Below, in pieces: positions 15,853-58,568 of a DNA stretch of 64,000 nucleotides (positions are counted from its first letter, which is position 1; every line of letters begins with the position of its first letter). Both the position numbers and the translations under genes were made by a program. The notes beneath the pieces are model-generated. The model saw only the letters and a program-made list of their open reading frames with translations, was not told where the DNA came from and searched no databases. The stretch spans positions 13,801 to 77,800 of the IMG/VR virus record IMGVR_UViG_3300037851_000941; one strand, given 5' to 3'. The stretch is from a virus. Taxonomy: Duplodnaviria > Caudoviricetes.

Positions 15853-16785
15853 TTACACGGCGCGAACGGCAGTGGCCTTCACGACCGCCGGCTCATGGGC
15901 GAACTTGAAGTCCACCCGGAGGCTGACCACGATGACGTAGACGCCGGCCTGAATGTCGCGGTCGGTGTCGAAGCGAATGTTCCGCCACACGCCAAAGAGC
16001 ATGTTGCTTGGGTCGGTGAGCAGCATGTCGGTCTGGTTGGCGCCGCCGCCCAGGTTCGTCGGGAACACCGGCACGTCCACCACCGGGATGCCCTCGAACG
16101 GACCGACCATCGGCGCCTGCACATGCTCGTCGCCCTGCGGCGTCATGCGGTCGGCGATGGACTCGTGGTAGTCGATGACCGCCTCGTCGGCCGTCATGAA
16201 GCGCAGGGCGCGCTTGTCGCGCCGGAACTCGCTGGGCATGGTCTTGAGAGTGTCCTTCAGGACCGTGCGGCTCAGCGTGGCACCGCCCGCGTTGACCGTG
16301 TTCGTGACGGTCTGCACCCGGAAGCCGTTGAGCAGCTTCAGCAACTCGTCGGCCGAGGTGGTGTCGCCATTGATGGCCACGTCCTCGAGGTCCAGTGAAA
16401 CGCGCTCGGCCAGCGTGTCCCGCACCGTCTGCTCGAAGGCCCCGCGCTCGATGGAGTCCTCCAGGGCCTCGAAGCTGACGCGCGTCTCCGCCTTGGCGAG
16501 CTTCGCGTCCAGCTCCACCTTGCTGGTGTCCGGGGCGGCCCGCTGGGCGACCGGGAGCGCCACCGCCTCGGCACCCGCGCGCAGGGCACGAGAGCCGTAG
16601 CGGATCTTCTCCCGCAGCTCCTTGGGGGCCTTCATGTCCACGCGCGTCATGAGCGGCAGGACGGCGCTCCGGTCAATCGCCAGCCGGATGAACCGGTCGG
16701 CCTGTGCTGGCTCGAGCAGTCCTCCGGGCGCGAGCTGCGCGAGGAGGAAGTCGGCCTTCTGAACGAGGTCTCTGTTATCACGCAT
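15853..16785 (-). CDS. Major capsid protein (HK97 fold)
   Basis: GGLLEPAQADRFI, SFEALEDSIERGAFE, LLTDPSNMLFGVWRNIRFDTDRD. Confidence 0.9.
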   Translation of the reverse strand: MRDNRDLVQKADFLLAQLAPGGLLEPAQADRFIRLAIDRSAVLPLMTRVDMKAPKELREKIRYGSRALRAGAEAVALPVAQRAAPDTSKVELDAKLAKAETRVSFEALEDSIERGAFEQTVRDTLAERVSLDLEDVAINGDTTSADELLKLLNGFRVQTVTNTVNAGGATLSRTVLKDTLKTMPSEFRRDKRALRFMTADEAVIDYHESIADRMTPQGDEHVQAPMVGPFEGIPVVDVPVFPTNLGGGANQTDMLLTDPSNMLFGVWRNIRFDTDRDIQAGVYVIVVSLRVDFKFAHEPAVVKATAVRAV

Positions 16786-16839: not shown

Positions 16840-17898
16840 TCACCAGACCCACGGCCCGCCCTGACGACTGCCCCGGCGAGTCCGTTCCTTGTCACCGCCC
16901 TTGACGGGCGGAACATCTGCCTCGGGCCGGCTGCCCTGCGGCATCGGCGTGCTGGCGATCTGTGCGACCTGCGTGCCCAGGGTGTCGAGCCGCTTCATCA
17001 GCTCGGCCAGCTCGGGCACGTCCTGCTGGATCTTCGGCCCAGCCTTGCCGTCCGTGGTGTCGCCGCCGCCACCGATGTTGCCCATCTCGGCCGCCGGCTT
17101 GGGGTCGGGCGTCTGCGGGGTGCTCTCGGCCAGGCGCTTCTCCTCGGGCACCGACGGCTCGACCTCGGAGAGGATGCGCATGAAGCGGGCAAAGGCGTCC
17201 TCGAGGGACTTGACCGCCTCCTTGTACTGGGCGAGGCGACGCACGCCGAGGCGCGCCGTCTTCTCCACGTCATCGGGCGCGACCTGCGGCTCCGGCGAGG
17301 CCGGTGCCGGGGGAGCATCGCCAGCGGCGACCAGCGCGGTGGTGAAGTCCGACACGAAGGAGCGCATCTTGGCCAGCTCGTCGACCGATGCCTTCTCGGT
17401 GCTCGTCACCTCCAGGGACAGCCTGCCCAGCGCTTCGGCCAGCTCGGCCAACCGGATGCCGATGCCGGCCGGCTGCGGCGTCGCGGCCTTCTCGGCCATG
17501 GACGTGGGCGACGGGTAGCGGCTCAGCGCACCGGTGAGCAGCTCGGCGATGGAGCGCATCTCCGACGCGAACTCCGGGGGCATCGGCTCGGCCATCTGCT
17601 CGGCCGTCTCCTCGGCCTCCTTGATCATGTTCGTGAGCGAGACGCCCCGCTCCAGCACCTCGGTCAGGACGCGCAGGACGCTCTCCTTCACGGGGGTCGG
17701 GATCGGGCCTTTCTTCGTTTCGGTGGCTGCACTCTTGTCACTCATCTGGTGTCCTCCAGCGTGTTTCGCGTCCTTGATGACGAGGAACCGTCGGCGATTG
17801 GCGGCACGGTCCACGTAGGACACCTCCTCGGGTAGGATGTCATGGAGCCGAAAACGGGCCTCCGACTCCTCCGTCTCCTTGTCCCTGTCCGTGCTCAT
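16840..17898 (-). CDS. Capsid scaffold-like protein beginning with an XkdF-type EVSxVDxxAN motif
   Basis: ATG 17898 with GGAG SD; EEVSYVDRAANRRRFLVIK then charged helical region; directly upstream of MCP. Confidence 0.7.
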   Translation of the reverse strand: MSTDRDKETEESEARFRLHDILPEEVSYVDRAANRRRFLVIKDAKHAGGHQMSDKSAATETKKGPIPTPVKESVLRVLTEVLERGVSLTNMIKEAEETAEQMAEPMPPEFASEMRSIAELLTGALSRYPSPTSMAEKAATPQPAGIGIRLAELAEALGRLSLEVTSTEKASVDELAKMRSFVSDFTTALVAAGDAPPAPASPEPQVAPDDVEKTARLGVRRLAQYKEAVKSLEDAFARFMRILSEVEPSVPEEKRLAESTPQTPDPKPAAEMGNIGGGGDTTDGKAGPKIQQDVPELAELMKRLDTLGTQVAQIASTPMPQGSRPEADVPPVKGGDKERTRRGSRQGGPWVW

Positions 17899-17953: not shown

Positions 17954-20900
17954 TCACTTCGAGCGGGCAGCCCGCAGGGCCTCCTTGACCGCCGTGCCGC
18001 CGATGGAATAGCCGTCCAGAGAGCCATTCTTGACTTGCTCCCAGACCTCATCTGGGCCGGCTCGCGTAGCGAGGAACCAGGTGCCGACAGGGAAGTCCTC
18101 CCCACCGTGGCTCTCGGTCACCTTCGACACATACGACTCGAGGACCTTGATGCCGTCTAGCGGCTTGCCGGCGTGCATGATGCGCATGTGCCCGCCGAAG
18201 TGCTCCAGGAAGGCGTGGGCGGCCTTGCGCACCGTGGCCGCGTCGTAGATGTCCCCTTGCGCGTCCACCTCGTCCGGCACCAGGACGACACCGAAGACAT
18301 AACGCTCCTCGGTCTCCGGCGTCGGCTGCTCGGCTTTGAGCAGGCGCACCGGGCGCTCGGCCTTCGCCAGCGAGCCGGGCATGGACTCACCCGCGCGCAG
18401 CAGGCCCAGCACCTCCGGGATCGTGCTGGGCGGGCCGTCCACCACGTCGATGGCCTGCGCCGGGCCGAACCACGAGACGCTCCTGGGCTCCAGGGAGCGA
18501 TGTAGGAACTCCAGCGAGTAGACGCGAATCACGTCCCCGACGTCGGCGGCGAGCCTCCTGTTGCCGGTGGTGCCGATGACGACCCAGGACTTACCGTCGC
18601 GCTCCACGGTGCCCTCCCAGGCGCCATCCTCCGGGCGCACCGGGCCGATGGCGCCCACGAAGTTGTAGACGCCGGGCGAGCCCGCGACCTCGTGGCGCTC
18701 CACGACCAGCGCCCGCAGCTCGCGCACGAGCTTGACCTTGGCCCAGAGGTCATTCTCCCCGCCGAGGCTCAGCGTGGAGCCGATGGCCTTCAGCATCGCG
18801 CCCTCGCTCCCGGGCTGCCGCGCCGCCCAGTCGATGGCATCGCGCAGGCTCGGGCGATCTGCGACGACCCGGAACTCGTCCAGGCAGATGTGCTGCAGCT
18901 GGGCCTTGTGCCGCTCGATCCATCCGTTGAGCGCAGCGCGGCGTACGCTCAGGGGCGCCGTCGTGAGGTTCTTCTGGTCCGGCAGGTACAGGGCGTCGAA
19001 GACGACGAACCGCAAGCCCCGGTCGTCTGGCTCCATGCCGCGCAGGTCTGCCAGCTCGCGGCGCGGCTTGTACGCGCCCGCGTCGGCGTCCCACTCCATC
19101 ACCTCGCCGTCCAGGATGAGGTCGCCGGGCAGCGCAAGCACCTCGCGCTCCAGGCTCGGCCACCGGGCGAGGATGTTCTCCTCCGGCGAGTCCTCGGTGA
19201 AGGCCATTGCGCCGTGCTCGCCCCATCGCTGAAGCACCACGCGGAACCCGTTGAGCTTGGGCTCGACCTGCACCCCCGCCGCCACCAGCTCGTCGGTGAA
19301 CGCCTCGCGGGCAGCCGACTCCGCGTCGGAGAAGGCGGCCGTCCGGCGCGGGGCGGGCTTCGTCGGCGTGAACCGGGCCGGCGGCCGAAGCAGCTCGCGG
19401 TCGCCGCCCCTGTCATCGCCCTCCGTGCGCTCTGCGGGGTCCCACACCTGCACCTCGCCGTCCATGCGCAGGCGCTTGGTGGCGGCATCTGCCTCGGCCG
19501 GCGCCTGGGGTCCCATGGTCCAGATGGCACCGCCGGGCTCCTCGGCCCGGAACTCGTAGGTGCCCTGGAGCTTCGGGCCGCCGAAGCGCACGAGCAGCCT
19601 GCTGCCGGGCTCGTGCTCCAGCAGCTCGGCGTCGCCGCGCTCCTGGATCGTCAGACGCGACGGCGTGGCCCGCGTGGGGTTCAGCGCGATGGTGCCCACG
19701 ACGGTCCCGGGCGGCACGTCGCCGCTCAGCGCCAGCAGCTCGTCGTTGACCGCCGCATGGCGCACGGCGAGCACCTGGGCATCACTAGCCAGTGGGTCCG
19801 TCTGGAGCTGGTAGTTCCAGAGGCCGCCCTCGGGCCGACCGATGATGACGTGGAACACCTCCCGGCCCACCCCGCGCACCACGGTCTGACCCTTGAATCG
19901 CTGCCAGGACAGCGTGTACGGGACGCGGACGGGCAGCGCGACTTTCTCGGCCTCCACGAGCGCGGCGTCGTTGAGCGTCCAGTCGTCGCCGAGCGCCTCG
20001 GTGAGGCTCTTCTCGACGAGGTCGTAGTTCGAGACGAGGAGCGTCGTGAGCACCTTGGGCCCGCCGACGCCGCGCATGGAGCCGATGGTGCGGCTCGGCC
20101 GGATGCGCTTGACCCGGAAGCCCTCCTTCTCGAACCGCGCGGGCAGCTCGCCCCGTGTCCCGTAGGTCACAAGGAACTTGCCCTTGATGGACTTGAGCAG
20201 CGCGAGGAAGCGCGCCTCGTCGAAGTCCGACTCGCCGACGTCCACGTTGTAGCCGGGGTACGGCGGGTCCAGGTAGAAGGCGGTGTCCTTGCCGTCGTAC
20301 TTGCGGACGACCCGTTCGTAGTCGCCGCAGTGGATGCGGACGTTCTTCAGGCGCGGGCCGAACTTCTCGATGCGATCGACGGTCGCGGCCTCGATGCCCT
20401 CGCCCGAGGGGCTGAAGGACCGGCCGCGCAGCTTCCTGTAGGAGAAGTGGGTGACGTACAGGAACCGGTGCAGCTTCTCGACGTCGTCCTTGGGCCGGGC
20501 GTCGAACAGGCGCTTGAAGGTCGCCTCATCGCCGGTCCAGGTCATCTTGCGCAGCCGCGCCACCTGCTCGGGCTTGAGCCGCTTGATGAGCCTGTAGGCC
20601 TCGACGATCTCCGGGTCGGCGTCGTTGATGACCTCGGTCTCGGCCGGGTCCTTGGCGAAGAGCACGGCGCCGCTCCCGGCGAAGGGCTCGACGTAGGTCT
20701 TGTGGGCCGGCAGCAGCGCGACCAGCCGCTCGGCGAGCTTCTTCTTGCCGGCGGGCGAGCCCCAGATGGTCTTGTCGACCAGTGTGGCCTTGGTCCGTGG
20801 TTCCGACCCCTTCAGCACGAACTGACCAGCCTCGACGGCCACGGTGTCCGCAGTGAACAGTCGCGCGGCCACCAGGGCGTCGCGCACGGCGCGCGCCCGC

Positions 20901-23638
20901 GCCTGGTCCGGCTCCTCCCAGTAGCGATACTCGGCGGGGGTCGCGGCCATCAAGGACTCGGGCATCCCGGAGCGCCCCGGCGGCGGCATCACGCGCCGCT
21001 CCACCGAGCGACGGTCCAGCACCGACGGCAGGGCGTTCCGCGCGAAGCCGACGGTCCAGAAGACCTCGCCGGCGGGCACGCCCGGTGCCACGGGGCCGCC
21101 CTCCTCCTCATCGAGGGCGCGGTCGCCGACGAGCGCCCGGAAGACCAGGCGACCGGAGAACCGCTCGTCGCCGGTCAGGAAGTACTCGTGCGAGTAGGGC
21201 TTCTGGAGGCCCCACTCCACCGTCGGGTGCGCCACGGCCACCATCACGCCGCGCTCGTACCGCGTGGCTCCGATCTCGCCCTCGCCGAACACCTCGCCCT
21301 CCACGTCGAGCCAGCCCTTGGGCTGCCGGGACTTGGGCGCCGCCATGATGCGCTCGGGCAGCCGGAAGGGCTTGGTGTACCGGGAGCCCTCGGCGCCGAA
21401 GTCGGCGGCCACGTCGCGCGCCGCCTCCAGCGTGTCCACGTCGGGCACGACATCGGGCCTCTGGAGCATGAGCGTCCAGCCGACGAGGTAGTCGCCCACG
21501 TCGACCCGGAGGTCCCCATGCACGCTCCGTCCCCGGAAGTGCAGCTGGAGCACCCCGGGCCGGGGGCCGGGCTCCCTGGGCCAGTCGAGCATCGGGTCGT
21601 CGGCCTTGGTGGCGAGCGCCATCTGCTTGAGCGACCGGTCCTCGTGAGGCACGAGCACCAGGTCGTAGAGCTTCACGAAGCTCGTGAACGGGCCGCCCAT
21701 CGGGTCGTGGTGGTAGCTCACGCGGCGCGACAGGTCCGGCGGCAGCGCCCGGCCAAGGCGGAACTTCACGACGTGTAGCGTGTCCTCGTCGAGCGGCCCG
21801 CGCACCAGAACGTCGATGTCGTTCTTGCTCACGCCGTCGTTGCAGAGCGAGCCCACGAGGCACACCGCCGCGTCTCGCAGCCGCATGGGCTTGTCGTAGC
21901 AGGCCAGCACGTCGGGCAGGCTCACCGGCTCCAGGGCGCCGTTGCTGCCGGCATGAATGGGCGCGAACTCGCCGGTGGCCGCCTGCTTCCAGGTGGCGGT
22001 CTCCTGCGCCAGCTGGTCGTCCTCGGGCATGGAGATCTCACGCCGGGCCATCTCGCGCAGAAGGAAGGCGTGCGCGTTGATCACCTGCTCCCGGCTCGCC
22101 CCGTCCGCCTCGGCGATGCCTGTCGGGAAGGCGTCGGCGAACCAGGCGTGCATGGCGCGGTCGAGCACTCGCAGGTCCTCGTCGCTGAGCGCGGCCAGGG
22201 CCTCGTCGCTGGGGCCGGCCACGAGGGCGTCGAGCTGCGCCTCCACGCCGTCCCGGAAGACCTTGGCAAAGGGCAGCCCGAGCTGACGCGCCCGGGCGAC
22301 AGCAGTGCTCAGCTCGATGTCGGGGCCGAAGCGCCGGCCGGGCAGCGGCGCCAGCAGACGGAGCGGAGGGTCGAACTCCACCAGGAGCCGAAGGGGCATA
22401 TGGAAGAACCCGCGCACGGCGGCGAACTCCTCGAGGCTTGGCTTGTCGATGCCCGCGAGCACGGCCTCGGGCAGCGCCTCGATCCCCACGTAGGGCTCGG
22501 GCTCGCCCTGCTCGACAACCGCCCAGACGAAGGTGCCTCCGCCGTCGGGCACCTCGTTGACCAGCGCCTGCGGCTTACCCACTCTCCCCACCCGACGCAC
22601 GCGGGAGAGGAACCCGGTGGGCTGGCCGGAGCGCAGGCGGTCCAGGTTGAACGCCGGGGCGGGCAGCTTGAGGACGGGCAGGGTGCCCCGTGGGGGCTCG
22701 GCCCGCCAAACGGCCACGGCACCCTCGCGCCTGGCCCTCTCGCAGGCGGCGTCGAGCGTCATCGGGGCGCCGGCGTCCGGCGTCTGCTCAACCTCTTCGG
22801 TCTGCGCCGCGCGGCACCAGGGCCACGCCTGCTCCGGCGTCAGGCTGCGCACGGCGCCCCAGGGCAGCGCGAGCCCGTGCTGGTGCGCCCCGCTGCCCGG
22901 CAGCATCGAGCCCCCGAGCAGCGCGTGACGGTGCGGCTCGCCCTCGTCGGTGTAGTGGTCCTCGCCGTCCACGATGACGTGGTGCGAGTGCATGCCGTTC
23001 TCCTCCGTCGTGGCGGCGTCGTGCGTCGGGATCGCGTGGGCGTGGGCGCCGTCCAGAGACGTGACCACAATGCGCGGGGCCGCCTCGCCCTCCCTCGCCG
23101 GCAGAACGAAGAAGTGCCGATGGGCGCCGTCCTCGCGCGTCGAGAGCTGCTCGCGCACCAGCTCGTGGCCGTGCGCCCCGCCGGCGAGCATCCGCGCCAG
23201 CCCGGCCCCGCGCCCGAGCAACGGTGGCAGCGAGGGCCAGTGGCCCTCCTCGCCTTCCAGGAGCGCGTTGATGATGCGCGCCGCCTTGCCCGCATCCTCG
23301 GCCCACGGCGCCAGGGCGGGGTCGACAACGGCGCGCTCCCCCAGCATCTTGGCAACGCCCTCGGCCGCCGCGCCTATGTCATCAATCTGCGCGCTGTCCG
23401 ACGATTCGCCAGAGAGCTTTTCCACAGCCGAGAACAGGACGGGGAGCCCCGCCAAAGCCTCTTCCGCTTCCGGGGGCACCCGGCCCTTGAACGAGCCCAG
23501 GGCGCCCGGCAGGCGGGCGGCCAGCGCGCGGCAAACGGCCGCCACGTCGACGGGGGCGGGGGCGGGGGTCGGGCTCTGGGCTGGGGTCAGAAGCTGGCGT
23601 GCGGCCTTGATGGCGCGTTCGGCCCGTTCGATGTCCAT
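17954..23638 (-). CDS. 1894-aa multidomain protein: His-rich region, nucleotidyltransferase-like, LigD phosphoesterase-like, Dam-type adenine methyltransferase, ATP-dependent DNA ligase, C-terminal XkdF-type prohead protease
   Basis: LVGSL..NDIDVLV; QLHFRGRSVHGDLR; YVEPFAGSGAV and FYLDPPY; EPKLNGFR, LDGEV, VFDAL, EGAMLK, WAKVK; VFGVVLVPDEVDAQGD...GTW...VKNGSLDGYSIGG. Confidence 0.85.
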   Translation of the reverse strand: MDIERAERAIKAARQLLTPAQSPTPAPAPVDVAAVCRALAARLPGALGSFKGRVPPEAEEALAGLPVLFSAVEKLSGESSDSAQIDDIGAAAEGVAKMLGERAVVDPALAPWAEDAGKAARIINALLEGEEGHWPSLPPLLGRGAGLARMLAGGAHGHELVREQLSTREDGAHRHFFVLPAREGEAAPRIVVTSLDGAHAHAIPTHDAATTEENGMHSHHVIVDGEDHYTDEGEPHRHALLGGSMLPGSGAHQHGLALPWGAVRSLTPEQAWPWCRAAQTEEVEQTPDAGAPMTLDAACERARREGAVAVWRAEPPRGTLPVLKLPAPAFNLDRLRSGQPTGFLSRVRRVGRVGKPQALVNEVPDGGGTFVWAVVEQGEPEPYVGIEALPEAVLAGIDKPSLEEFAAVRGFFHMPLRLLVEFDPPLRLLAPLPGRRFGPDIELSTAVARARQLGLPFAKVFRDGVEAQLDALVAGPSDEALAALSDEDLRVLDRAMHAWFADAFPTGIAEADGASREQVINAHAFLLREMARREISMPEDDQLAQETATWKQAATGEFAPIHAGSNGALEPVSLPDVLACYDKPMRLRDAAVCLVGSLCNDGVSKNDIDVLVRGPLDEDTLHVVKFRLGRALPPDLSRRVSYHHDPMGGPFTSFVKLYDLVLVPHEDRSLKQMALATKADDPMLDWPREPGPRPGVLQLHFRGRSVHGDLRVDVGDYLVGWTLMLQRPDVVPDVDTLEAARDVAADFGAEGSRYTKPFRLPERIMAAPKSRQPKGWLDVEGEVFGEGEIGATRYERGVMVAVAHPTVEWGLQKPYSHEYFLTGDERFSGRLVFRALVGDRALDEEEGGPVAPGVPAGEVFWTVGFARNALPSVLDRRSVERRVMPPPGRSGMPESLMAATPAEYRYWEEPDQARARAVRDALVAARLFTADTVAVEAGQFVLKGSEPRTKATLVDKTIWGSPAGKKKLAERLVALLPAHKTYVEPFAGSGAVLFAKDPAETEVINDADPEIVEAYRLIKRLKPEQVARLRKMTWTGDEATFKRLFDARPKDDVEKLHRFLYVTHFSYRKLRGRSFSPSGEGIEAATVDRIEKFGPRLKNVRIHCGDYERVVRKYDGKDTAFYLDPPYPGYNVDVGESDFDEARFLALLKSIKGKFLVTYGTRGELPARFEKEGFRVKRIRPSRTIGSMRGVGGPKVLTTLLVSNYDLVEKSLTEALGDDWTLNDAALVEAEKVALPVRVPYTLSWQRFKGQTVVRGVGREVFHVIIGRPEGGLWNYQLQTDPLASDAQVLAVRHAAVNDELLALSGDVPPGTVVGTIALNPTRATPSRLTIQERGDAELLEHEPGSRLLVRFGGPKLQGTYEFRAEEPGGAIWTMGPQAPAEADAATKRLRMDGEVQVWDPAERTEGDDRGGDRELLRPPARFTPTKPAPRRTAAFSDAESAAREAFTDELVAAGVQVEPKLNGFRVVLQRWGEHGAMAFTEDSPEENILARWPSLEREVLALPGDLILDGEVMEWDADAGAYKPRRELADLRGMEPDDRGLRFVVFDALYLPDQKNLTTAPLSVRRAALNGWIERHKAQLQHICLDEFRVVADRPSLRDAIDWAARQPGSEGAMLKAIGSTLSLGGENDLWAKVKLVRELRALVVERHEVAGSPGVYNFVGAIGPVRPEDGAWEGTVERDGKSWVVIGTTGNRRLAADVGDVIRVYSLEFLHRSLEPRSVSWFGPAQAIDVVDGPPSTIPEVLGLLRAGESMPGSLAKAERPVRLLKAEQPTPETEERYVFGVVLVPDEVDAQGDIYDAATVRKAAHAFLEHFGGHMRIMHAGKPLDGIKVLESYVSKVTESHGGEDFPVGTWFLATRAGPDEVWEQVKNGSLDGYSIGGTAVKEALRAARSK

Positions 23639-24010: not shown

Positions 24011-25279
24011 TCACAAGACGGGCAGCAGGGTGCAGCGGCACCCCTCGTGCGCCGGGGGCATCGTCACGCCCTCGGTGCCCCGGATGGGCGTCAGGGCGCG
24101 AAAGCCGGTGGGGGCGCCGTCGTCGTCGCGGCGGAACCGGGCAACCTCGGTGCCGGAGCTGCGGACCACGATGCGGTCGCCGCGCACCGAGTAGAAGCTG
24201 TCCATGGCCGCCGCCGCGTCCGGGCTCGGCGCCGCCTCGACCCGGGCCATGCGCGCGATGGCGTCCGAGGTGCTGAAGATCTGGCCGTCCAGGAAGGCGC
24301 AGACGGGGCACGTCACCTCGTCCATGACCGCCGACCACTGGTACTCCAGCACCGCGCCGTCCCGGAAGCCCGTGAGCTGTCCATAGCTGCGCCCCCGGGT
24401 CATGGCGACGTTGGCCACGGTGCGGAAGTACGCCTCCGAGCGCCCGGAGACCCGACGGCCCAAGGCCGCCTGCAGGTCGGTGGCGATGGTGCGCGCGTCG
24501 AGGCCCTGCGCCAGGCCGTCGCGGATGATGGGGGCGGCGTCGCGAGCCCACGCCCTCGCGCGTCGGCCGTACTCGTTCATCACCCAGAAGGTCTGATCGC
24601 GCCCGATGCGCGCCACGGCCGCCCGATCTGCCACGTCGAGGAGCGGCTTCACGGACTCCTTGCGCGCCGCGCGCCGGCTGTCGGCGGCAACCCGGAGCGC
24701 GCGGGACACCAGCGGCCCCTCCACCACCCGGGCCAGCGCGGGACTGCGGGCGATGCCCAGGACGACCTGGGCCACCTCCTCGATCTGCCGGGCCGTGGCG
24801 CGCGGCCCCAGGTCGTTCCAGCGCCGCTTGAGCTTGGCCGCCGCACGGGTCATCGCCTCACGCTCGGCCCTACGGGCACCGCGCAGGAGCTGCCGATGCA
24901 CCTCGTCCACGATCCGGGCGAAGTCGCGGCGGTTCAGCGGGGACAGGCGCCGGGCCTTGTCGAGGTCGACGACATGCCGCGCCCGCACGTAGAGCCGGGA
25001 GCCCGACCGGAGCTGCACGTGGCCCCTGAAGACCAGGGCGGTGCCGTCGCCCTCGGCCGCCAGGCGCAGCGCGCGGGCACCAGCCTCGCCGGGGCCGAGC
25101 GGGGCGGCCTCCAGGCGCCCGAGGTGCGGGGAGACGGCGGTCCAGCCCGTGCAGCAGACGAGCACCGGCGGGTCGTCCGACAGCTCCCGGGGCTCGGCCA
25201 CCAGGCGCCACGGGGGGCCAAGGACGGCGACGTGCTCGGGCCTCGGCCCCAGGGCTAGGAGACTCGGCCCGGTATCCAT
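24011..25279 (-). CDS. MuF / SPP1 gp7-like head morphogenesis protein (start uncertain)
   Basis: YQWSAVMDEVTCPVCAFLDGQIF and PPAHEGCRCTLLP. Confidence 0.85.
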   Translation of the reverse strand: MDTGPSLLALGPRPEHVAVLGPPWRLVAEPRELSDDPPVLVCCTGWTAVSPHLGRLEAAPLGPGEAGARALRLAAEGDGTALVFRGHVQLRSGSRLYVRARHVVDLDKARRLSPLNRRDFARIVDEVHRQLLRGARRAEREAMTRAAAKLKRRWNDLGPRATARQIEEVAQVVLGIARSPALARVVEGPLVSRALRVAADSRRAARKESVKPLLDVADRAAVARIGRDQTFWVMNEYGRRARAWARDAAPIIRDGLAQGLDARTIATDLQAALGRRVSGRSEAYFRTVANVAMTRGRSYGQLTGFRDGAVLEYQWSAVMDEVTCPVCAFLDGQIFSTSDAIARMARVEAAPSPDAAAAMDSFYSVRGDRIVVRSSGTEVARFRRDDDGAPTGFRALTPIRGTEGVTMPPAHEGCRCTLLPVL

Positions 25280-25653
25280 TCGCCGCTGACGGCCACGATG
25301 TCCACGGTGGTCGCGGCGCCCAGCGTGATCGCCGTGATGCGCACCGCCATCTCGTGCCCGTGGTTGGCCACCGTGGTCACCGCCTCGTCGGTCAGCCCCG
25401 CGACGGGCGTCAGCTCGCGCCAGACGCGCCCAGCAACCGGGTCGTTGATGGCGATCAGCGGCGTGATGTCCACGTCGGTCCCGTCCACGATGGCGCCCAG
25501 GCCGTTGCGGAAGACGGGCGTCACGCGCACCGCCTCCCACTCGCGGGCGTCGAGCATATCCGCCGCCGCGCTCGGGAGCCAGTTGGCGGCGTCGGCCACG
25601 GCTCGCAGGGATCGGATCGTGACTGTCGCGTCGGTGTTGTAGAGTCGTTGCAT
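25255..25653 (-). CDS. Hypothetical protein (probable virion component)
   Basis: 132 aa, coupled to the portal stop codon. Confidence 0.6.
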   Translation of the reverse strand: MQRLYNTDATVTIRSLRAVADAANWLPSAAADMLDAREWEAVRVTPVFRNGLGAIVDGTDVDITPLIAINDPVAGRVWRELTPVAGLTDEAVTTVANHGHEMAVRITAITLGAATTVDIVAVSGEWIPGRVS

Positions 25654-27482
25654 CAGAGCCCAGCCCCTTCCTCGTTGGCGGCGCCGTCGCGAGCATGGCG
25701 GCGCGCGGCGTCCACGGCCCGCTCCATCTCACGCTCCCACCGCTCGCCGCCGGCATCCTCGACGGCCGCCTGGGCCTCGAGCATCAGGTCGCGCAGTCGG
25801 TCCTCACGCGCCGACACCACCTCGTCGGCCTCGGGCATGATGCCCGCCATGGTGATCGGCAGGGGCTGCCTGGCAAACGGGCGGTCGAACGGCGGCAGCT
25901 CCCGGCCCACCACCTCGGCCACGATGGAGCGGGCCTCGTTCGGCGTGAGCACGGCGGCCTTCGTGAGCCGCTCGGCGGCCTCCACGATGGAGTCGAGGTC
26001 GCGCGTGCGCGGCCCCAGGCTCCTGAACTCCAGGAGCGAGATGCCCAGCTCGGGCAGCACCACCCGGTTCATGAAGGCGTCGAAGTCGTTGCGCTCGGGC
26101 TCGAACACCTGCTCGTCAGCGAACTTCAGGGCGCTCTCGCTCGTGGCGCGGTTGAAGTCCCGGGAGTCGCCGCGCAGGAGCCGGGGCAGGCGGAAGGCGC
26201 TGCCCACCTTGTCGATGTTCCGCTCGTCGTAGTTCTGGAAGAGGGCGTCGCCTTGCTGCGCGTCCACCAGGCGCTCGAACTTGAGCCGGGGCACCACGGC
26301 CTGCTCGCCGGGCATCAGCTCGTTGTCGGCGCCGATGGCCTCGATGACCAGGACCTTGTGGAAGTTCTCCCGGCCCCGGGCACGGTCGCGGAAGTGGTCC
26401 TCGATCCGCTTCACGGCGTCCGGCGACAGCTCGCCGCCCTGTACCAGGAGCGCCATGGGCGGCACGGCCTTGTTGTCGAAGTAGTCGAAGTTCACCTCGT
26501 CGGCGGCGCGGCTACCGAGCACGGACAGGAGCACGCCCATCCAGCGCGGCACGCCGTAGGCGCTGCCCGAGTCCTCGATCTTGAAGTGGATGACCTCGTT
26601 GGCGGGCCTGTCGCCTTGTTGCGCCCGACGCTCGAAGTCCGCCAGGTCGGTGTAGATGGCCCCGGTCTGCTGGGAGACGATGCGCGGGTCGCCAAACTGC
26701 TTGAACCACGTAACGCGCCGCCCCACCACCTGCACGTAGCGGCGGAAGAACCGATGCTGCTTCACCGGGCTCCACTCCAGCAGGTCAAAGGGCATGCGCT
26801 CGTCGACGAGCACCGGCTCCTCGTCCAGCTTGGTGCAGCGCACGTCCTCGTGCGGGACATGGACGAGGCGGGCCAGTTCCCCGCGCTTCGTCCGCAGCAC
26901 CTCCCAGTAGGCGTTGCCGCTCTCCTCGAGGTCGCGGCGCGTCTTCACCCGCAGCGCGACGAACGTCCCGTCCGGGTTCGCCGAGCGAAGGAACGCCTCC
27001 AGGCGCACCCGCTCCATGCGCGCCTGCTTGGTCAGGCGCTTGACCGCCGCGTCGACCTCCAGGTCGCTGGGCTCGCACGCCTCCGGGTCATGCACGGCCC
27101 CGCCGCGCCGCTCCTCGGTCCGCATGGCAGAGCGCCAAAGAGACTCCTTGACCACCCACCACGCCTCGTCGGAGTCGAAGTCCACGGCGCTCTTGATGCG
27201 GTGCCCCTGCCCGTCGATGTTGGTGGCGTATGCCTGGATGTTCTGGTTCAGGCACGAGCTGTTCTGCCTGATGCGCTTGAGGGTCCCGGGGTCGAACTCG
27301 GGCTGCACGACGGTCGAGCCCAGCAGCGAGCCGAGGTCGTCGGTGCCGTCCTGGGTGGCCGACGAGGCGGGGATGGCGAGCGGGGCCAGCTCGCGCACCT
27401 TCACCACCAGGCGCCGGGTGGCGCTGGCGAGTGGCTCGGGGGAGCGGGCGTCCTGGCTGCTGGGGCGGGTCACGTGGGGCAT
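25653..27482 (-). CDS. Portal protein (PBSX family); start may be GTG 27473
   Basis: GNAYWEVLR, NEVIHFK, YGVPRW, YFDNKAVPPMALLVQGG, AFRLPRLL. Confidence 0.92.
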   Translation of the reverse strand: MPHVTRPSSQDARSPEPLASATRRLVVKVRELAPLAIPASSATQDGTDDLGSLLGSTVVQPEFDPGTLKRIRQNSSCLNQNIQAYATNIDGQGHRIKSAVDFDSDEAWWVVKESLWRSAMRTEERRGGAVHDPEACEPSDLEVDAAVKRLTKQARMERVRLEAFLRSANPDGTFVALRVKTRRDLEESGNAYWEVLRTKRGELARLVHVPHEDVRCTKLDEEPVLVDERMPFDLLEWSPVKQHRFFRRYVQVVGRRVTWFKQFGDPRIVSQQTGAIYTDLADFERRAQQGDRPANEVIHFKIEDSGSAYGVPRWMGVLLSVLGSRAADEVNFDYFDNKAVPPMALLVQGGELSPDAVKRIEDHFRDRARGRENFHKVLVIEAIGADNELMPGEQAVVPRLKFERLVDAQQGDALFQNYDERNIDKVGSAFRLPRLLRGDSRDFNRATSESALKFADEQVFEPERNDFDAFMNRVVLPELGISLLEFRSLGPRTRDLDSIVEAAERLTKAAVLTPNEARSIVAEVVGRELPPFDRPFARQPLPITMAGIMPEADEVVSAREDRLRDLMLEAQAAVEDAGGERWEREMERAVDAARRHARDGAANEEGAGL

Positions 27483-28251: not shown

Positions 28252-29093
28252 CCGTGCCGGGAGCCTTGCTCGCCGTTCCGCGAGATGCGGACCGCGCCGT
28301 GGCCGCGCCAGCCCCATTCCTCTTCTTCGGCCTCTTGCCCTGTGGCTGTGCCCGGGCCGTGCCTGCCTGCCGCTCCTCAGTCGGCGGGGGTGCGACCTGG
28401 GCCAGCGCGACGGACAGCGCGGCAACCAGCGCGGCGCCTTTCTCATCGAAACCGGGCACGTCAGGGTTCTCTGCCAAGAACTCGAGGCCTCGATGCGCGA
28501 ACGCCCGCAGCGCGGGCTCCACTACCCGGTCCGCCGTGGCCGTGGCCACGGTCAGCTTGTAGGTCCGCACGGGCGTCACACGGCTATCAACGCGGGAGTT
28601 GGCAGGGTCCGCTGCCGCCTCCATCTCGCGCAGGTACTGCTCGGGCACCGAGATGGCATCGCGCAAGACCAACAGGTCGTCCTCCGTCAGGCCCATGGCA
28701 GGCAGGTCCTGGATCACGCCACCCGTCCAACTCCTCGATGGACGCTATCAGGGCAGCGAGCCCGTCCACGTCGAACTCGCCCTCAATCTCGTTCAGGCCC
28801 ACGTTGAGCTTCCTGACGTCGGCTGCGCCGAGGTCGTCGCGGAAGATCACCGGGACCTTCTGGTCCTTTGGGATCGCGCCGGCCTCGACCATCTCCTGCA
28901 CCGCGACCAGGCGCTGGTGTCCGCCAATCACGGTCATCGTTCCCCGCTCCACGACCATCGGGACCGTGAAGCCGAACCGCAGCAGAGAGGCCCGCAGCTC
29001 GTCCCGCTTGCGACGCGACATCCGACGCGGGTTGTAGTCGGCAGGCACCAGCTTGGACCAAGGAACCAGCTCGACCTTGTTGAACAGTCTCAC
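28232..29093 (-). pseudogene. ParB-N-domain protein split by a 1-nt frameshift near 28722-28724
   Basis: LVPADYNPRRMS...IGGHQRL ParB-N motifs; removing one G joins ...IEELDG to GVIQDLPAMGLTEDDL... (286 aa). Confidence 0.7.
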
Positions 29094-30169
29094 GTCTCTT
29101 CTCCTTCTTCTGCGCACCCCGCGCCCGGACGCGCGCCCTCGAGCCCGTCGCGTCGCGCGACGAGCCCAACTGCCATCTTGTAGGCCTCGACCACGCGGTT
29201 CACGTTGCGGTCGGCCACGAAGAAGATGAAGCCGCGCGAGTTGCGCTGGTCATAGTACCGCTCCATCTTGGCGATGTGAACGACCGAGACAGCCGAGCGA
29301 TATGTTAGGTCCTCCAGCACGCGCCGCACGGAGAATCGGTGGCGCACGGCCAGGTCACGGACCTTCTCTGGCCTGAAGCCCCGAAAACCCGCCTGCTTGG
29401 ACACCAAGGTTATTCCATCGGCTGTTCTCTTACTCACCCGACGCTGCGTGGCCCGCGTACCGCCCAGGTGGCAGGCGAGCTTTTGACCGTCCCACAACCA
29501 CAACACCCCGTAACGCTGCACCGCCGCCAACATCGACGCATCCGCCGAGGCCCAGTCGAACGAGCGCATCAGCTCGCCGGCACCGCCTGTGCCGAGCGCG
29601 TGCAGTCGGGTCCCGTAGCGATACGCGAGCGAGTGGACGCGATGATACCAGCGCAGTCGGCGCAGGTACGCCTCGCGATTGTGCAAGAACTCCGTCTGAT
29701 TGTCCGTAGCAAGCCCAGTCCCCGAGTTCCCGACGGCGCACCAGCGATAGGCATCGCAGACCGACTCCACCTGCGCGTCGGTCATGAAGGGATGCAGGAC
29801 CGGCCAGGTCCTGCCCGCGCCCAGCGCGAGCCGGAGCGTCGCGGTGTGCCGCTTCACTATCTCGTGGTCGGACGGGTAATCGACGTCAATGGCCGCCTGC
29901 AGGAACCGACCCCAGTTCCTGGTCCTCAACCAGCCAGCATACCCTTCTACGCCGATCGCCACATTCTTCTGGCGGGCCGAGTAGACCCCGGAGTCGATCA
30001 GAAACCGGGGGACGCGCAGCCCTGCGCCCGAGAACTTCCTCGCTGCTTCCTGTGGATCGAACTGCCCGGACAGCAGCCAGTAGGACATCAGGAGGCCGCG
30101 CGCGGTCGGCTGTCCCCGATCAGCCGACCGCGCCGAGGCGATGCCAGTGCTCTGCGATGACTCGATCAC
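29090..30169 (-). CDS. TGT-fold DNA guanine transglycosylase (DpdA-like); alternative start 30088
   Basis: FLIDSGVYS, PVLH, LHALG, SADAS motifs of TGT/DpdA-like proteins; adjacent to folE/queD/queE. Confidence 0.75.
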   Translation of the reverse strand: MIESSQSTGIASARSADRGQPTARGLLMSYWLLSGQFDPQEAARKFSGAGLRVPRFLIDSGVYSARQKNVAIGVEGYAGWLRTRNWGRFLQAAIDVDYPSDHEIVKRHTATLRLALGAGRTWPVLHPFMTDAQVESVCDAYRWCAVGNSGTGLATDNQTEFLHNREAYLRRLRWYHRVHSLAYRYGTRLHALGTGGAGELMRSFDWASADASMLAAVQRYGVLWLWDGQKLACHLGGTRATQRRVSKRTADGITLVSKQAGFRGFRPEKVRDLAVRHRFSVRRVLEDLTYRSAVSVVHIAKMERYYDQRNSRGFIFFVADRNVNRVVEAYKMAVGLVARRDGLEGARPGAGCAEEGEET

Positions 30170-31142
30170 CTGCCCTCACTCCTTCCCCCGTGGCACCAGA
30201 TCCGTCGTGCCACACTCCGACGGGGTCAACAGCGTACCCGGACAAGACCCGACCGATGGCCCCGACCATGTCCTCAACAGTGTCGACCTCGGCGAAGCAC
30301 CCTTCCGCGAACAGCTCCGGGTAGCTGAGGCGGCGCGGCACGATCACCCGGCACCCCATCTGGGCGGCCTCGACCATCGCGATGCCGAACGTCTCCTGGA
30401 GGGCGGCAGAGACGCACAGGTAGGCGGACCCGAGGAGGGCGTGATACTCCGCCTTGGAGCCGGTGGCCTCGAGCGTCTCGACGAACCGCCAACCCGGCCA
30501 CGACGGTCGCAGCTGATCGACGGCCGCGCGCCAGATCCACGTCTGCTTCTCGGGCACCGCGCGGTGGGGCCAGACCACCAGCCGCTCTCGGCGACCTCCC
30601 CGCGCGGTCGGCGCCATCCTGACCGGCAGCGGGCTCACGGTCACGCGTTCGACGGGCAGCCCAGCCGAGGCCAGAAGCGTGCGGTGGTACCGGGTGGCGA
30701 CCACCGCGTCGTCCAGCGATCGCAGCACAGAGTCCTCGAACCCACGCGCCCACGCGCCGCAGCCGGCCTGGGCGAGGCGGTCGTGGGGGTCGTAGGTGCC
30801 GGCGTGCAGGATGCCGACCAGGCGCAGCGGCAGACCCGCCACATCGCGCATGTACGCGGCAGAGATCACCCCGGGATGCCAAGCATCGAGGAACACGACC
30901 GTGCTCGGCACGCCAGCGCGAGCCGCCGCCACCAACATCTCGACCTGGGCCGCCTTGTAGGCGTGCGTCTGCAGCGGGTCCAGGAACTGCTCCGCAGACA
31001 GGCTGCCCGAGCCCACGTCCGGGTGAAGCACGCCGACGTCGAACCCCGCCGCCGACAACGCGGCCGGCCACCACTCGAGCCACTGCGCCGTGTATCGCTG
31101 CTCGATGGGCTCGATGGGGAGCAGGAGGCAGCGGGCTCTCAC
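30120..31142 (-). CDS. GT-B fold glycosyltransferase
   Basis: GILHAGTYDP, LVVWPHRAVPEKQ, QETFGIAMVEAAQMGC..IVPRRLSYPE. Confidence 0.85.
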   Translation of the reverse strand: MRARCLLLPIEPIEQRYTAQWLEWWPAALSAAGFDVGVLHPDVGSGSLSAEQFLDPLQTHAYKAAQVEMLVAAARAGVPSTVVFLDAWHPGVISAAYMRDVAGLPLRLVGILHAGTYDPHDRLAQAGCGAWARGFEDSVLRSLDDAVVATRYHRTLLASAGLPVERVTVSPLPVRMAPTARGGRRERLVVWPHRAVPEKQTWIWRAAVDQLRPSWPGWRFVETLEATGSKAEYHALLGSAYLCVSAALQETFGIAMVEAAQMGCRVIVPRRLSYPELFAEGCFAEVDTVEDMVGAIGRVLSGYAVDPVGVWHDGSGATGEGVRAGDRVIAEHWHRLGAVG

Positions 31143-31498
31143 GCTACCTCGGCGGCAAGGGCGACGCGGGCGCCGTTCTCACCGTCCTCGTCAACCTCGA
31201 CCGTGGCCCAGCCGAGGCCGTACCTTCCGATCATCTGCTCAGCGAGCTGGCCAGCCAGGGCCTCACATGACATCGCCCCAAGCTCGCCGCCCGGCCAGGT
31301 ATCGGCAACGTGCCGCGACAGCTCCCTCTTCGTTGTAATGAACTCTATGTCGCGGTCGACGTGCGACACTGGAACCTCCACCCTCACATTGAACAGGTGG
31401 CGGTGGCGGCTGGAGAGGAACCCGCACCACTCGGGTGCCTCGGGCCAGCGGTGAAAGCCCTCGAACGAGAAGGTGAACCAGACGCTGGTGCGCTTCAC
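31139..31498 (-). CDS. QueD-paralogous T-fold protein (DpdL-like)
   Basis: GTG start overlaps upstream stop; FEGFHRWP, LSSRHRHLF (LxxxHRHxF), SCE, EDGENGA. Confidence 0.75.
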   Translation of the reverse strand: MKRTSVWFTFSFEGFHRWPEAPEWCGFLSSRHRHLFNVRVEVPVSHVDRDIEFITTKRELSRHVADTWPGGELGAMSCEALAGQLAEQMIGRYGLGWATVEVDEDGENGARVALAAEVA

Positions 31499-32169
31499 AG
31501 CGCTCTCCTCTCTCCGTCGTAGTCGCCCCAGTCCAGAGGGGAGTCGAAGACGTAGCCCGCGCACCGGCGGCAGAGGTCCAGGCTGCCTGTGGCCTCCACA
31601 TCGTTGCAGCACAGCGCGACCGAGCCGTCCCAGCACACCGCCCGCCACCCGTCAACGAGGAACGAGCACCGCGCCGACCGCGAGAGGTCCTCGCCCTCCA
31701 CATCGACGAAGCCTGCATACGACTGCAGCTCCTTCTTCGGCGCGTCGCTCTTGACCAGCAGCCGGTGCTCGGTCGCCAGCAGCGAAGGTGGAATCGAGAA
31801 CGTCGACAAACGCACGCCGAACGGGTCGGTGTGCAGTCGGAGATAGGACAGTCCGGCGTCCACCAGCGCGTTCAGCCGCTCCTGGGTCAGGCCCCGACCG
31901 TGCGTCGAGAACCCGACGGTGAAGCCGCGACCGGACGCCATGGACACGAGGCGCTCCAGCCCACGGTGCAGGAGCGGCTCCCCGAAGTGGTGCATCGACA
32001 TCACGCGGTTCGTTGCCACGTCCAGGACGCAGGAGAAGGTCTCCCCCGTGATGAACCCGCGCTTCCGCTGGTGCCGCGAGTGCGGGCAGTATGAGCAGCG
32101 GGCGTCGCAGTGGTTGGTCACCTCGACCTGGTACACCTTCAGCGCGGACGTGTCCCAGACCGAGGTCAT
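31495..32169 (-). CDS. Radical SAM protein with SPASM/twitch-like C-terminus
   Basis: EVTNHCDARCSYCPH (CX3CX2C), HHFGEPLLH, CSF...WDGSVALCCND...CRRC. Confidence 0.88.
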   Translation of the reverse strand: MTSVWDTSALKVYQVEVTNHCDARCSYCPHSRHQRKRGFITGETFSCVLDVATNRVMSMHHFGEPLLHRGLERLVSMASGRGFTVGFSTHGRGLTQERLNALVDAGLSYLRLHTDPFGVRLSTFSIPPSLLATEHRLLVKSDAPKKELQSYAGFVDVEGEDLSRSARCSFLVDGWRAVCWDGSVALCCNDVEATGSLDLCRRCAGYVFDSPLDWGDYDGERRAL

Positions 32170-32633
32170 CGCAGCACCGCATCTTCCAGGTAATCCTGCG
32201 GCCTGGTGCGCCAGCCGGACCCCACGCGGAAGGTTACGATGTTGTACGGCGCCCCCACCGACACGAGGTCGTCTGGCCGGAGCAGGTCAAGGACAGAATC
32301 GTGTGCCCGTAGCCTCGCCACCACCACTGCCCCGCGCACGAGTGATGCTGCAGTCGTGGCCGCCAGCACGTCCTCCTTGTTGGTGGCATCGCACTCGATC
32401 GTGCATGGCATACGATGCAACTCCAGCCAGGGCGCGAGCGTGTCGCGGAACCAGGCCCAGTCACGCAGCGTGTCGCGCACGAAGACGTGCCCCACCCTTG
32501 CCACCTCCAGCACCGCCGGGGCCACCGGCGAGGAGATCATCGCCGTCTGGACGCGCCACGGCGCCATCGGCCCCTCGACCTCCGGGCCGCGCCACGATGA
32601 GCCCGGGGTCATGATGCCGCGCGGGTGCGTCAT
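32166..32633 (-). CDS. Unknown protein translationally coupled inside the modification operon
   Basis: 155 aa; ATGA overlaps on both sides; WRGPEVEG motif. Confidence 0.7.
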   Translation of the reverse strand: MTHPRGIMTPGSSWRGPEVEGPMAPWRVQTAMISSPVAPAVLEVARVGHVFVRDTLRDWAWFRDTLAPWLELHRMPCTIECDATNKEDVLAATTAASLVRGAVVVARLRAHDSVLDLLRPDDLVSVGAPYNIVTFRVGSGWRTRPQDYLEDAVLR

Positions 32634-33208
32634 CTACCCAGCACCTTCAGCGCCTCGGCCCGCGCCGCAGCGTCCTCCCTCATGCTGCCGAAGAAGACCG
32701 TCGTGACCATCTCCCCCGTCGACTCGACGCCGCGCAAGCACATGCACGAGTGGACAGCCCGGACGATGACCCCGAGACCGACTGGGCAGAGCCCTTCCTG
32801 CAGCGTCCAGGCCACCTGCGCTGCGATCCTCTCCTGGACCTGGAGCCGCCGAGTGATGGCCCGGACGATGCGCGGGATCTTCGAGAGCCCGACGATTTTC
32901 CCGCTCGGGATGTACGCCACCGAGACGGTCCCGGTGAAAGGCAGGACGTGGTGCTCGCAGAGGGAGGCGAACGGGATGTCCTTGACCGCGACCATCGCGT
33001 CGCCCTCGCTCTCGAAGGTCACCAGCAACGAGCGCGGGTCCACCTCGTAGCCCGAGGTCAACTCCTGCATCGCCTTGGCCAGCCGCCGTGGCGTGTTCAC
33101 GAGCCCTTCCCGGGCCAGGTCTTCCCGACCGCCCAGCAACGCGGCCATGAACCCTCCTGCCGCATCCTGCAAGCCTGGCAAAGGGCGCTCGCTGTCAACG
33201 TGAACCAT
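32630..33208 (-). CDS. folE: GTP cyclohydrolase I
   Basis: SLCEHHVLPF, GLSKIPR, RRLQVQERI, HSCMCLRGV. Confidence 0.96.
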   Translation of the reverse strand: MVHVDSERPLPGLQDAAGGFMAALLGGREDLAREGLVNTPRRLAKAMQELTSGYEVDPRSLLVTFESEGDAMVAVKDIPFASLCEHHVLPFTGTVSVAYIPSGKIVGLSKIPRIVRAITRRLQVQERIAAQVAWTLQEGLCPVGLGVIVRAVHSCMCLRGVESTGEMVTTVFFGSMREDAAARAEALKVLGR

Positions 33209-33226
33209 GTCGCAATCCTCCTCTCG

Positions 33227-33926: not shown

Positions 33927-33930
33927 GGTC

Positions 33931-54061: not shown

Positions 54062-54080
54062 GACTCCCTCCTTTGCATCC

Positions 54081-54371: not shown

Positions 54372-54441
54372 CTCCTTTGGTTAGACTCGCTCACGAGAGG
54401 GCAAGCGGGACGGCGCCCACGCGCCGCCCGCCGCCCGACCA

Positions 54442-56185: not shown

Positions 56186-56194
56186 GCTGCCACC

Positions 56195-58442: not shown

Positions 58443-58568
58443 GCCGGTACGCTCCTACAGCTCCGCGCCTCGCGGCGCTCGGACTCACGCGCTCATCGAT
58501 CTCGGCGAGCCGCTCAGCAGTGGGTGCCGGTACGCTCTCCAGCTCCGCGCTCACGCGCTCGGACTCAC
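58443..58568. repeat. Imperfect direct repeat of about 45 bp (2 copies) in a long leader
   Basis: gccggtacgctc...cagctccgcg...gcgctcggactcac at 58443-58488 and 58526-58568. Confidence 0.8.

Follow-up and report, generated by a model that had tools for sequence, protein, structure and literature searches.

Polyvalent proteins, described in phages and conjugative elements by Iyer, Burroughs, Anand, de Souza, and Aravind in 2017 (PMC5512222), carry many effector domains on a single polypeptide and are predicted to be packaged, processed by a peptidase, and delivered with the DNA. DarB of phage P1, a methyltransferase (MTase)-containing virion protein that acts in cis, and the Alt and internal proteins (IPs) of phage T4 are also packaged and injected (PMC5512222). 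The window considered here, a 64-kb stretch (positions 13,801 to 77,800) of the 77.8-kb linear IMG/VR virus record IMGVR_UViG_3300037851_000941 (Duplodnaviria; Caudoviricetes), which is ∼74% complete according to CheckV, contains a gene for a polyprotein of 1894 amino acids (aa) that combines a six-fold GxHxH module, an ASCH-like domain, a nucleotidyltransferase (NTase), a LigD-type 3′-phosphoesterase (PE), a Dam-type MTase, a second, degenerate PE-like domain, an ATP-dependent DNA ligase, and the core of an XkdF-type prohead protease (Table 1). The reading that we favor, to which we give somewhat better than even chances, is that this string of enzymes forms an N-terminal extension of the sole detectable prohead protease and would be packaged, released, and carried out of the head with the DNA; the fusion probably serves the carriage of the enzymes into the capsid.

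The polyprotein falls within the definition of the polyvalent proteins, as it has many effector domains on one polypeptide, is encoded next to portal and MuF packaging genes, and includes an in-built peptidase, which in both cases is always C-terminal (assemblin-like in the polyvalent proteins, XkdF here; PMC5512222). It differs from them in that XkdF, DNA ligase, LigD PE, and ASCH domains are not mentioned in the main text of that paper, and that their methylases are EcoKI/TaqI-like and accompanied by SF2 helicases, whereas the one found here is of the Dam/D12 type; ligases were never seen with the 2H domains of polyvalent proteins (PMC5512222). P1 DarB and the T4 IPs and Alt, the closest functional precedents, are packaged in the head, exit along with the DNA, and either shield that DNA or alter the host. 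Unlike the present protein, DarB has no fused protease and carries a helicase. In T4, the cargo has a short N-terminal targeting peptide that is cut by gp21, whereas the enzymes considered here are joined covalently to the protease in one chain, and to our knowledge neither ligase nor phosphoesterase cargo is known in the P1 DarB and T4 systems. The concept of packaged effectors is familiar, but an XkdF protease anchor with LigD-like cargo appears to be undescribed in the searchable literature, full-text searches of which found neither XkdF-ligase or XkdF-MTase fusions nor LigD PE domains in capsids.

The initial annotation of this DNA, made from the letters alone, had described one uninterrupted open reading frame (ORF) lying between the MuF gene and the scaffold and major capsid protein (MCP) genes, and this description holds. 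The frame has a GC content of 0.93 at third codon positions (GC3) versus 0.48 at second positions (GC2), and its ATG at 23638 stands 8 nucleotides (nt) after a Shine-Dalgarno (SD) sequence, GGGAGAG, with the stop codon of the upstream gene 3 nt before. The GC content of the window is 70%, and almost all its confident coding ORFs are on the minus strand. The genes are ordered portal, MuF-like, 112-aa gene, polyprotein, scaffold-like, and MCP, a head module according to PHROGs; family searches with the 112-aa product gave no match. The true start of the scaffold gene leaves no overlap with the polyprotein gene, the seeming overlap being an open frame in GC-rich DNA. In the whole 77.8-kb record, this ORF encodes the sole detectable member of a prohead protease family, the sole ATP-dependent ligase, and the sole D12 methyltransferase. 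All six elements listed in the initial annotation were found where it had placed them, and the ASCH-like domain and the six-fold GxHxH repeat are additions to that list.

Relatives of the polyprotein are numerous and their cargo is variable. In IMG/VR, 170 stretches match it. Clusters at 90% identity that match the whole protein number 47 (1041 to 3315 aa), and a profile of the NTase-PE region finds 1525 protein clusters at 50% identity with E values of ≤1e-3, 508 of them with E values of ≤1e-30. The arrangement portal-MuF-(small ORF)-[cargo-XkdF]-scaffold-MCP is kept in about 75 IMG/VR loci, and XkdF is the final domain in each of the 121 proteins (121/121) that carry it. The conserved core order is (ASCH)-NT-PE-PE*-LIG-XkdF, where NT is the NTase, PE* the degenerate PE-like domain, and LIG the ligase. 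Some relatives have only MTases, one to three of them, as cargo; others include a metallo-beta-lactamase, a C5 MTase, inteins, or a 2H phosphoesterase. The ligase may be present or absent, and its adenylation domain is missing in some relatives (L052, L068); the swappable domain content anticipated from the single sequence is thus confirmed by the homologue survey. Split forms are rare (L006, L082). A second class, with the order NT-LIG-PE-PE* and no XkdF, is encoded between the portal and the scaffold/capsid genes in all three contigs examined, which argues that the repair module is a component of the head module in its own right. The large fusion was found in none of the INPHARED cultured phages; a single-sequence contig scan found no relatives, and an alignment-based scan found only contigs of metagenome-assembled genomes (MAGs).

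The C-terminal domain placed by the initial annotation at the prohead protease position is indeed of the XkdF type, by both its Pfam match (score of 87 bits, the curated cut-off being 24, and of 93 bits in the record-wide scan, covering profile positions 9 to 125 of 126) and its synteny, with the correction that its fold seems incomplete alone. The conservation of catalytic residues, scored here and below over 24 divergent sequences, is complete for H1822 and S1878 (24/24), and the surroundings of S1878 show a weak alignment with those of Ser114 in HK97 gp4 (hhalign E value, 0.068). Like HK97 gp4, XkdF-type prohead proteases, and protease-scaffold fusions, the polyprotein has the same core with a His residue and a GxS[IV]G nucleophile, occupies the same slot before the scaffold and MCP genes, and is associated with an EVSxVxxxAN hairpin. 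In HK97 gp4, the matching pattern, RIFKNIQALREISVCTFPAN (R-I-x3-I-x4-E-I-S-V-C-x2-P-A-N), stands downstream of the Ser114 nucleophile in the same chain, whereas a regular-expression search for E-[IV]-S-x-V-x-x-[PA]-A-N found no match in the polyprotein, which is in this respect not a single-chain HK97-type protease. The hairpin is found instead on the next protein, near the N terminus of the scaffold (RLHDILPEEVSYVDRAANRRRFLVIK), with the EVSxVDRAAN core at aa 24 to 34. Its consensus, RLxDhxVEEVSLVDRAANKRRFLVVK, is by far the most conserved stretch of the downstream gene and opens that gene in ∼65 distinct loci, being present in every locus with a scaffold gene. Gp33 of Lactococcus phage 28201, a single-chain XkdF-scaffold protein, has the motif at its own N terminus, as a permutation of the HK97-type protease strand. 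In Pseudomonas phage PAK_P3, the 138-aa gp3 (L086:2919-3335) is XkdF only, and a similar motif stands at the start of the next gene, gp4. Neither HK97 gp4 nor 28201 gp33 has anything like the ∼1750 aa of enzymes that precede the protease core here. On the simplest reading of these patterns, the hairpin would be an element of the protease fold that the scaffold provides here in trans.

The scaffold gene is often coupled to the XkdF stop codon through ATGA, with its own SD sequence, and all three relative frames of the two genes occur among the loci, so the polyprotein and the scaffold are separate polypeptides. The same variety of frames, together with the many ATGA overlaps with their own SD sequences, excludes a programmed frameshift or readthrough between them; an internal start producing the protease alone is rejected from the family consensus, in which no conserved Met was seen ahead of the XkdF core. 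Conserved Lys residues lie inside otherwise variable linkers, namely, K678 (ATK), K946 (FVLK), K1388 (ATK), and K1768 (RLLK, invariant) of the polyprotein and K42 (FLVIK, invariant) of the scaffold, and are regarded only as candidate processing sites. The 138-aa XkdF-only proteins in many Pseudomonas phage records, PAK_P3 gp3 included, carry the RefSeq label "DNA methyltransferase," which is probably a carry-over from MTase-XkdF fusions.

The region of aa 545 to 945, which includes the NTase and the PE, was modeled with a 21-sequence alignment (predicted local distance difference test [pLDDT] score, 84), and only one clear structural relative of this model was found in BFVD. In VIA comparisons, the PE matched 3p4h with a Z score of 13.8 (root mean square deviation [rmsd], 2.1 Å; 117 of 118 residues) and 3n9b, the PE of Pseudomonas aeruginosa LigD, with a Z score of 12.2, as against only 5.7 for the next unrelated match; Foldseek ranks 1 to 7 were all LigD PE domains. 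The residues of the motif Q698-x-H700-x6-H707-x-D709-x-R711 are invariant (24/24), and the QxHxxxxxxHxDxR element noticed initially is therefore strongly borne out by the fold and the invariant ligands. The two His residues are 7 positions apart, as against 6 in P. aeruginosa LigD. By sequence, Pfam LigD_N (PF13298) matched 2 of the 24 members without reaching the family threshold (best E value, 0.084), and the PE-domain profile found no match among PDB sequences, the identity having come from the fold search alone; single-sequence PDB searches with the NTase/PE and second-PE regions returned chance matches only (ubiquitin-like proteins, DHFR).

The initial annotation had also named a Pol-beta-like NTase with a GS..DID motif. 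The motif and the superfamily stand, the latter with weak support from the fold, whereas a Pol X polymerase could not be demonstrated. The pattern G596-S, D607xD609, and D659 is conserved, with D607 and D609 present in at least 90% of the 24 sequences and invariant in the NTase-domain alignment. VIA gave weak matches to 1no5 (Z score, 5.7) and 8xeh (5.6), both of the MNT/HI0073 type, and the best matches outside the PE were all minimal nucleotidyltransferase (MNT) proteins (Z scores, 4.1 to 5.7); no Pol X structure was among the Foldseek or VIA matches of the NTase-PE model. A weak profile match aligned 40 residues around the motif to Pol X of African swine fever virus (ASFV) with an E value of 0.14. 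Because the weak MNT fold match and the GS/DxD/D pattern agree, the domain is named here an MNT-like NTase of the Pol-beta fold rather than a Pol X polymerase.

The possible degenerate second copy of the PE gains support from profile searches (3p43, E value of 7.7e-4; 3p4h, 0.009; Pfam LigD_N in 4 of 17 members, best E value of 0.0034). Its consensus reads SWQxWKGQ, the His and Asp ligands are lost, and the domain is therefore probably noncatalytic. Aligned with each other by hhalign, the two PE-like domains showed no relationship (probability, 0.2), and matches of the second profile to "Pizza" designer proteins were repeat-summing artifacts. Like bacterial LigD, the polyprotein unites a 3′-phosphoesterase of the same fold (Z scores, 12 to 14), an ATP-dependent ligase, and a nucleotide-adding domain on one polypeptide. 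In contrast to LigD, an MNT-like NTase of ∼100 aa replaces the archaeo-eukaryotic primase (AEP) polymerase, Ku was not found in the record, a degenerate PE is added, the PE has inserts besides its longer His-His spacing, and ligase motif I reads KxNGxR.

The ligase scored 59 bits against a cut-off of 26 with DNA_ligase_A_M, and its family profile matched archaeal DNA ligases, human LIG1, LigD, and the ASFV ligase in PDB, with E values down to 2.8e-16. Motifs I, III, IIIa, IV, and V, with the Asn of KLNGFR, had been read correctly from the translation. In motif I, K1461-L-N1463-G1464-F-R1466, the residues N1463 and G1464 are invariant and K1461 and R1466 are at least 90% conserved; motifs III (D1510/E1512), IIIa (F1547/Y1551), IV (E1612-K1617, EGAMLK1617), and V (K1634/K1636) are intact and conserved. 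The Asp of the usual KxDGxR is absent, and Asn takes its place in 24 of 24 sequences; the active ASFV ligase has Asn153 where human LIG1 has Asp570 (PMC6344480). Given this precedent and the invariance of N1463 in the family, the Asn is no sign of decay, and the ligase is probably not dead. The OB-like part consists of a conserved stretch of 110 aa following motif V and gave no match to Pfam DNA_ligase_A_C. The resemblance to the ASFV pair of ligase (AsfvLIG) and Pol X is distant; it comprises the motif I Asn in an active ligase (6imj, E value of 3e-5) and the weak NTase alignment given above, whereas the ASFV enzymes are separate, are not anchored in the virion, and belong to a eukaryotic virus.

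The Dam-family MTase, recognized from the outset by its FAGSG and DPPY motifs, both present in the translation, scored 77 bits against a cut-off of 22. It behaves as a mobile cassette that is missing, relocated, or multiplied in relatives. It is 82 to 94% identical to the middle MTase of ∼1055-aa proteins with three MTases and XkdF (P0020 to P0023 and P0026), one of which is encoded on a 910-kb contig; in whole-protein alignments, the polyprotein outside this cassette has at most 59% identity to any relative. This disparity points to a recent exchange of the Dam cassette within one host group.

The initial annotation had proposed that the enzymes are packaged, released by proteolysis, and co-injected as a counter to restriction or CRISPR cleavage, a reading that is plausible and partly supported by the results above. 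How such a protein could work may be sketched as follows. The XkdF core would dock on the scaffold, whose N-terminal hairpin (EVSxVDRAAN..FLVVK) would contribute the strand found after the nucleophile in proteases of the HK97 type, and docking would both complete the protease and pull the cargo into the procapsid, to which activity would be confined. The protease might then cut the scaffold and the polyprotein, with K946, K1388, K1768, and scaffold K42 as candidate sites, and the freed, folded enzymes would remain in the head and exit with the DNA. In the new cell, the PE would heal 3′ ends, the NTase would perhaps add a nucleotide, the ligase would seal breaks or cohesive ends, and the Dam enzyme would methylate the incoming genome, a logic that would amount to LigD without Ku or AEP polymerase plus a protective methylase like that of P1 DarB. 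The scenario in full, in which an incomplete XkdF core is completed in trans by the scaffold hairpin and the same contact loads a LigD-like repair and methylation kit that is ejected and, before any phage gene is expressed, closes and shields DNA broken by restriction or CRISPR nucleases, is offered tentatively and is, taken whole, more doubtful than the carriage of cargo as such.

Several observations weigh against these proposals. The presence of any part of the polyprotein in virions, here or in relatives, is something we infer, and a 205-kDa cargo, if present in many copies, would occupy an appreciable part of the capsid volume. The NTase fold match is weak (Z score, 5.7), and DNA extension by this domain is a supposition. 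The statistics connecting the hairpin with the protease are also weak (hhalign E values of 0.5 and 0.068; Pfam S78 in 2 of 27 members, E value of 0.034), leaving otherwise pattern and position. No kinase, Ku, or AEP polymerase was found (Ku in the whole record, itself only about 74% complete; AEP in a Pfam scan of the polyprotein), so this is not a full kit for nonhomologous end joining.

Among the alternatives, a methylase or ligase made late could just as well act within the producer cell, on the DNA of the progeny. The polyprotein would then be processed in the cytoplasm and stay unpackaged, its fusion providing co-expression and self-release, and its enzymes would methylate and nick-seal progeny DNA before or during packaging. 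Producer-cell action is usual for ordinary phage Dam methylases, and since the only ligase and the only D12 MTase of the record are here, any housekeeping need would fall on the polyprotein. We nevertheless consider it unlikely, as separate operon genes would suffice for such a role, which makes an in-frame fusion with XkdF last in every case hard to explain; the XkdF-less relatives are also in the head module, and split forms are rare. The substrate could also be RNA, with the packaged PE, NTase, and ligase healing and resealing RNAs, tRNAs among them, that host anticodon nucleases or RNases of abortive infection have cleaved, as T4 Pnkp and Rnl1 do, only delivered with the genome. LigD PE acts on 3′ ribonucleotides and 2′,3′-cyclic phosphates, ASCH domains are often RNA directed (the best fold matches include ZmASCH and YqfB), and MNT-like NTases are similar in fold to CCA-adding or tailing enzymes; one relative (P0034) has a 2H/LigT phosphoesterase, and phrog_14859, which bears the annotation RNA ligase, shows a fusion to XkdF. 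This proposal appears improbable to us, as the ligase matches DNA ligase families only (PF01068 and the PDB entries named above) and is followed by an OB-like region, DNA methyltransferases are the commonest co-cargo, and a 5′ kinase was not found.

That the enzyme domains are mainly ballast, recruited as mass for scaffolding or for the interior of the head while their activities decayed or became irrelevant, would fit the clearly degenerate PE copy and the loss of the ligase adenylation domain in L052 and L068. It is, however, very improbable, because the PE, ligase, MTase, and NTase motifs are invariant or nearly so across sequences that are 35 to 59% identical, which indicates selection on activity. 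The window does contain many long spurious ORFs, as expected from its high GC content, but an artifact, whether a chance open frame in 70% GC DNA, separate genes run together by faulty assembly, as the initial annotation had cautioned, or a frameshift error, is refuted for practical purposes: the high GC3 extends along the frame, the Pfam domains lie in one frame over the whole length, and collinear full-length homologues are found in dozens of independent assemblies. With so many divergent relatives showing the fusion, neither chance nor a false join in assembly can account for it.

If the cargo is packaged as we favor, these phages would carry ready-made DNA end-repair enzymes, going beyond inhibitors and methylases, and would represent a new class of counter-defense that acts before gene expression. 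The family, large (1525 clusters), modular, and almost wholly unannotated, is a source of compact ligases, phosphoesterases, and NTases. The XkdF core and the scaffold hairpin could be a natural capsid-loading tag, usable for bringing foreign proteins into phage heads, and a protease that the scaffold completes in trans, if true, would be a new way to time capsid maturation.

Table 1. Features of the polyprotein, the adjoining head module, and other genes of the window (window coordinates, except for the last two rows)
Feature	Residues	Coordinates	Strand	Basis or remark
Polyprotein gene (P0001), whole	1894 aa	17954..23638	−	Stop-free frame
Helical N-terminal region	1-140	23219..23638	−	Helices in model, pLDDT low to medium
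Six-fold G-x-H-x-H module	150-290	22769..23191	−	Beta-rich, ∼140 aa
ASCH/PUA-like domain	319-445	22304..22684	−	Model pLDDT >90; fold match
Minimal (MNT-like) Pol-beta-superfamily NTase	575-680, core 586-661	21599..21916	−	Motif and weak fold match
LigD-type 3′-phosphoesterase (PE)	692-866	21041..21565	−	Fold and intact-looking metal/phosphate motif
Helical extension after PE, ends FVLK946	870-945	20804..21031	−	Model; conserved
Dam/D12 N6-adenine DNA methyltransferase (PF02086)	950-1225, Pfam part 964-1156	19964..20791	−	Pfam 2.7e-21
Second, degenerate PE-like domain	About 1237-1385	19484..19930	−	Profile matches
ATP-dependent DNA ligase (PF01068), adenylation domain and OB-like region	1450-1750, Pfam part 1450-1636	18389..19291	−	Pfam 5e-16
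XkdF-type prohead serine protease core (PF14550, Peptidase_S78_2)	1761-1887, Pfam part 1775-1886	17978..18358	−	Pfam 1.3e-24
Scaffold-like gene	352 aa	16840..17898	−	ATG 17898 with own SD; synteny
Scaffold hairpin, RLHDILPEEVSYVDRAANRRRFLVIK	Scaffold 17-42	17773..17850	−	Conserved 26-residue motif, resembles HK97 gp4 residues 132-151
MCP		15853-16785		PHROGs; adaptor, sheath, and tail genes come next
Conserved gene between MuF and polyprotein	112 aa	23642..23980	−	Syntenic in many related loci
MuF-like gene		24011-25756		PHROGs
Portal		25653-27482		PHROGs
Queuine-tRNA-ribosyltransferase-like protein		29090-30169	−	PHROG 3e-10
GT-B-like glycosyltransferase		30120-31142	−	
Radical SAM enzyme		31495-32169	−	
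GTP cyclohydrolase I		32630-33208	−	Pfam 2.7e-57
Large terminase		37054-38706		
PD-(D/E)XK nuclease		52835-54061	−	
VWA-domain protein		54442-55980	−	
DNA polymerase III beta-clamp-like protein		59014-60162	−	
DUF5131 protein		60773-61783	−	
Other hairpin gene		L085:3896-4945		Motif at N terminus
Other hairpin gene		L086:3328-4215		Similar motif at N terminus

The N-terminal third of the polyprotein (aa 1 to 545) was modeled with a pLDDT of 70. Its first 140 aa are restricted in the alignment to the closest relatives, L008 and L009. The GxHxH module that follows keeps all six motifs in L008, L009, L010, L015, and L050 and may bind metal; it matched no family or fold, and a search for short proteins with this module found none, no relative being shorter than 1041 aa. 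In L050, the module stands C-terminal of the ASCH domain, not N-terminal. The model predicts an ASCH beta-barrel for aa 319 to 445, which VIA aligned with ZmASCH (5guq; Z score of 8.8, rmsd of 3.6, 127 aa), 6kir (8.3), and 9kyf (7.5), and Foldseek with 2kku, 9kyf, and 2dp9 (af2351, YqfB, and TTHA0113; probability of 1.0, E values of 0.014 to 0.04); a profile of this region had no match in PDB or Pfam, and an ESM Atlas look-up was likewise empty. The helical linker of aa 457 to 545 gave only generic helical matches in the fold search.

The host of this uncultured phage is probably a myxobacterium. The Myxococcales MAG contig JACPVI010000063.1 (L088, L089; 105,832 bp) has homologous gene copies, P0006 and P0009, at its two ends; the contig probably represents a phage genome, either concatemeric or with terminal redundancy, that was assigned to the MAG during binning, and the copies hint at a myxobacterial host. 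Homologous polyproteins (P0043, P0044) and a neighbor gene (L093:1-2606) contain intervening intein domains of the Hint and LAGLIDADG types, which marks these head modules as intein targets.

Elsewhere in the window, a replication and recombination region (52835-61783, minus strand) encodes the nuclease, VWA-domain, beta-clamp-like, and DUF5131 proteins listed in Table 1. Between the large terminase and portal genes, the minus-strand cluster at 29090-34383, with its GTP cyclohydrolase I, radical SAM enzyme, glycosyltransferase, and queuine-tRNA-ribosyltransferase-like protein, is probably a 7-deazaguanine DNA modification pathway; together with the polyprotein, it would mean that the phage invests twice in the protection of its DNA.

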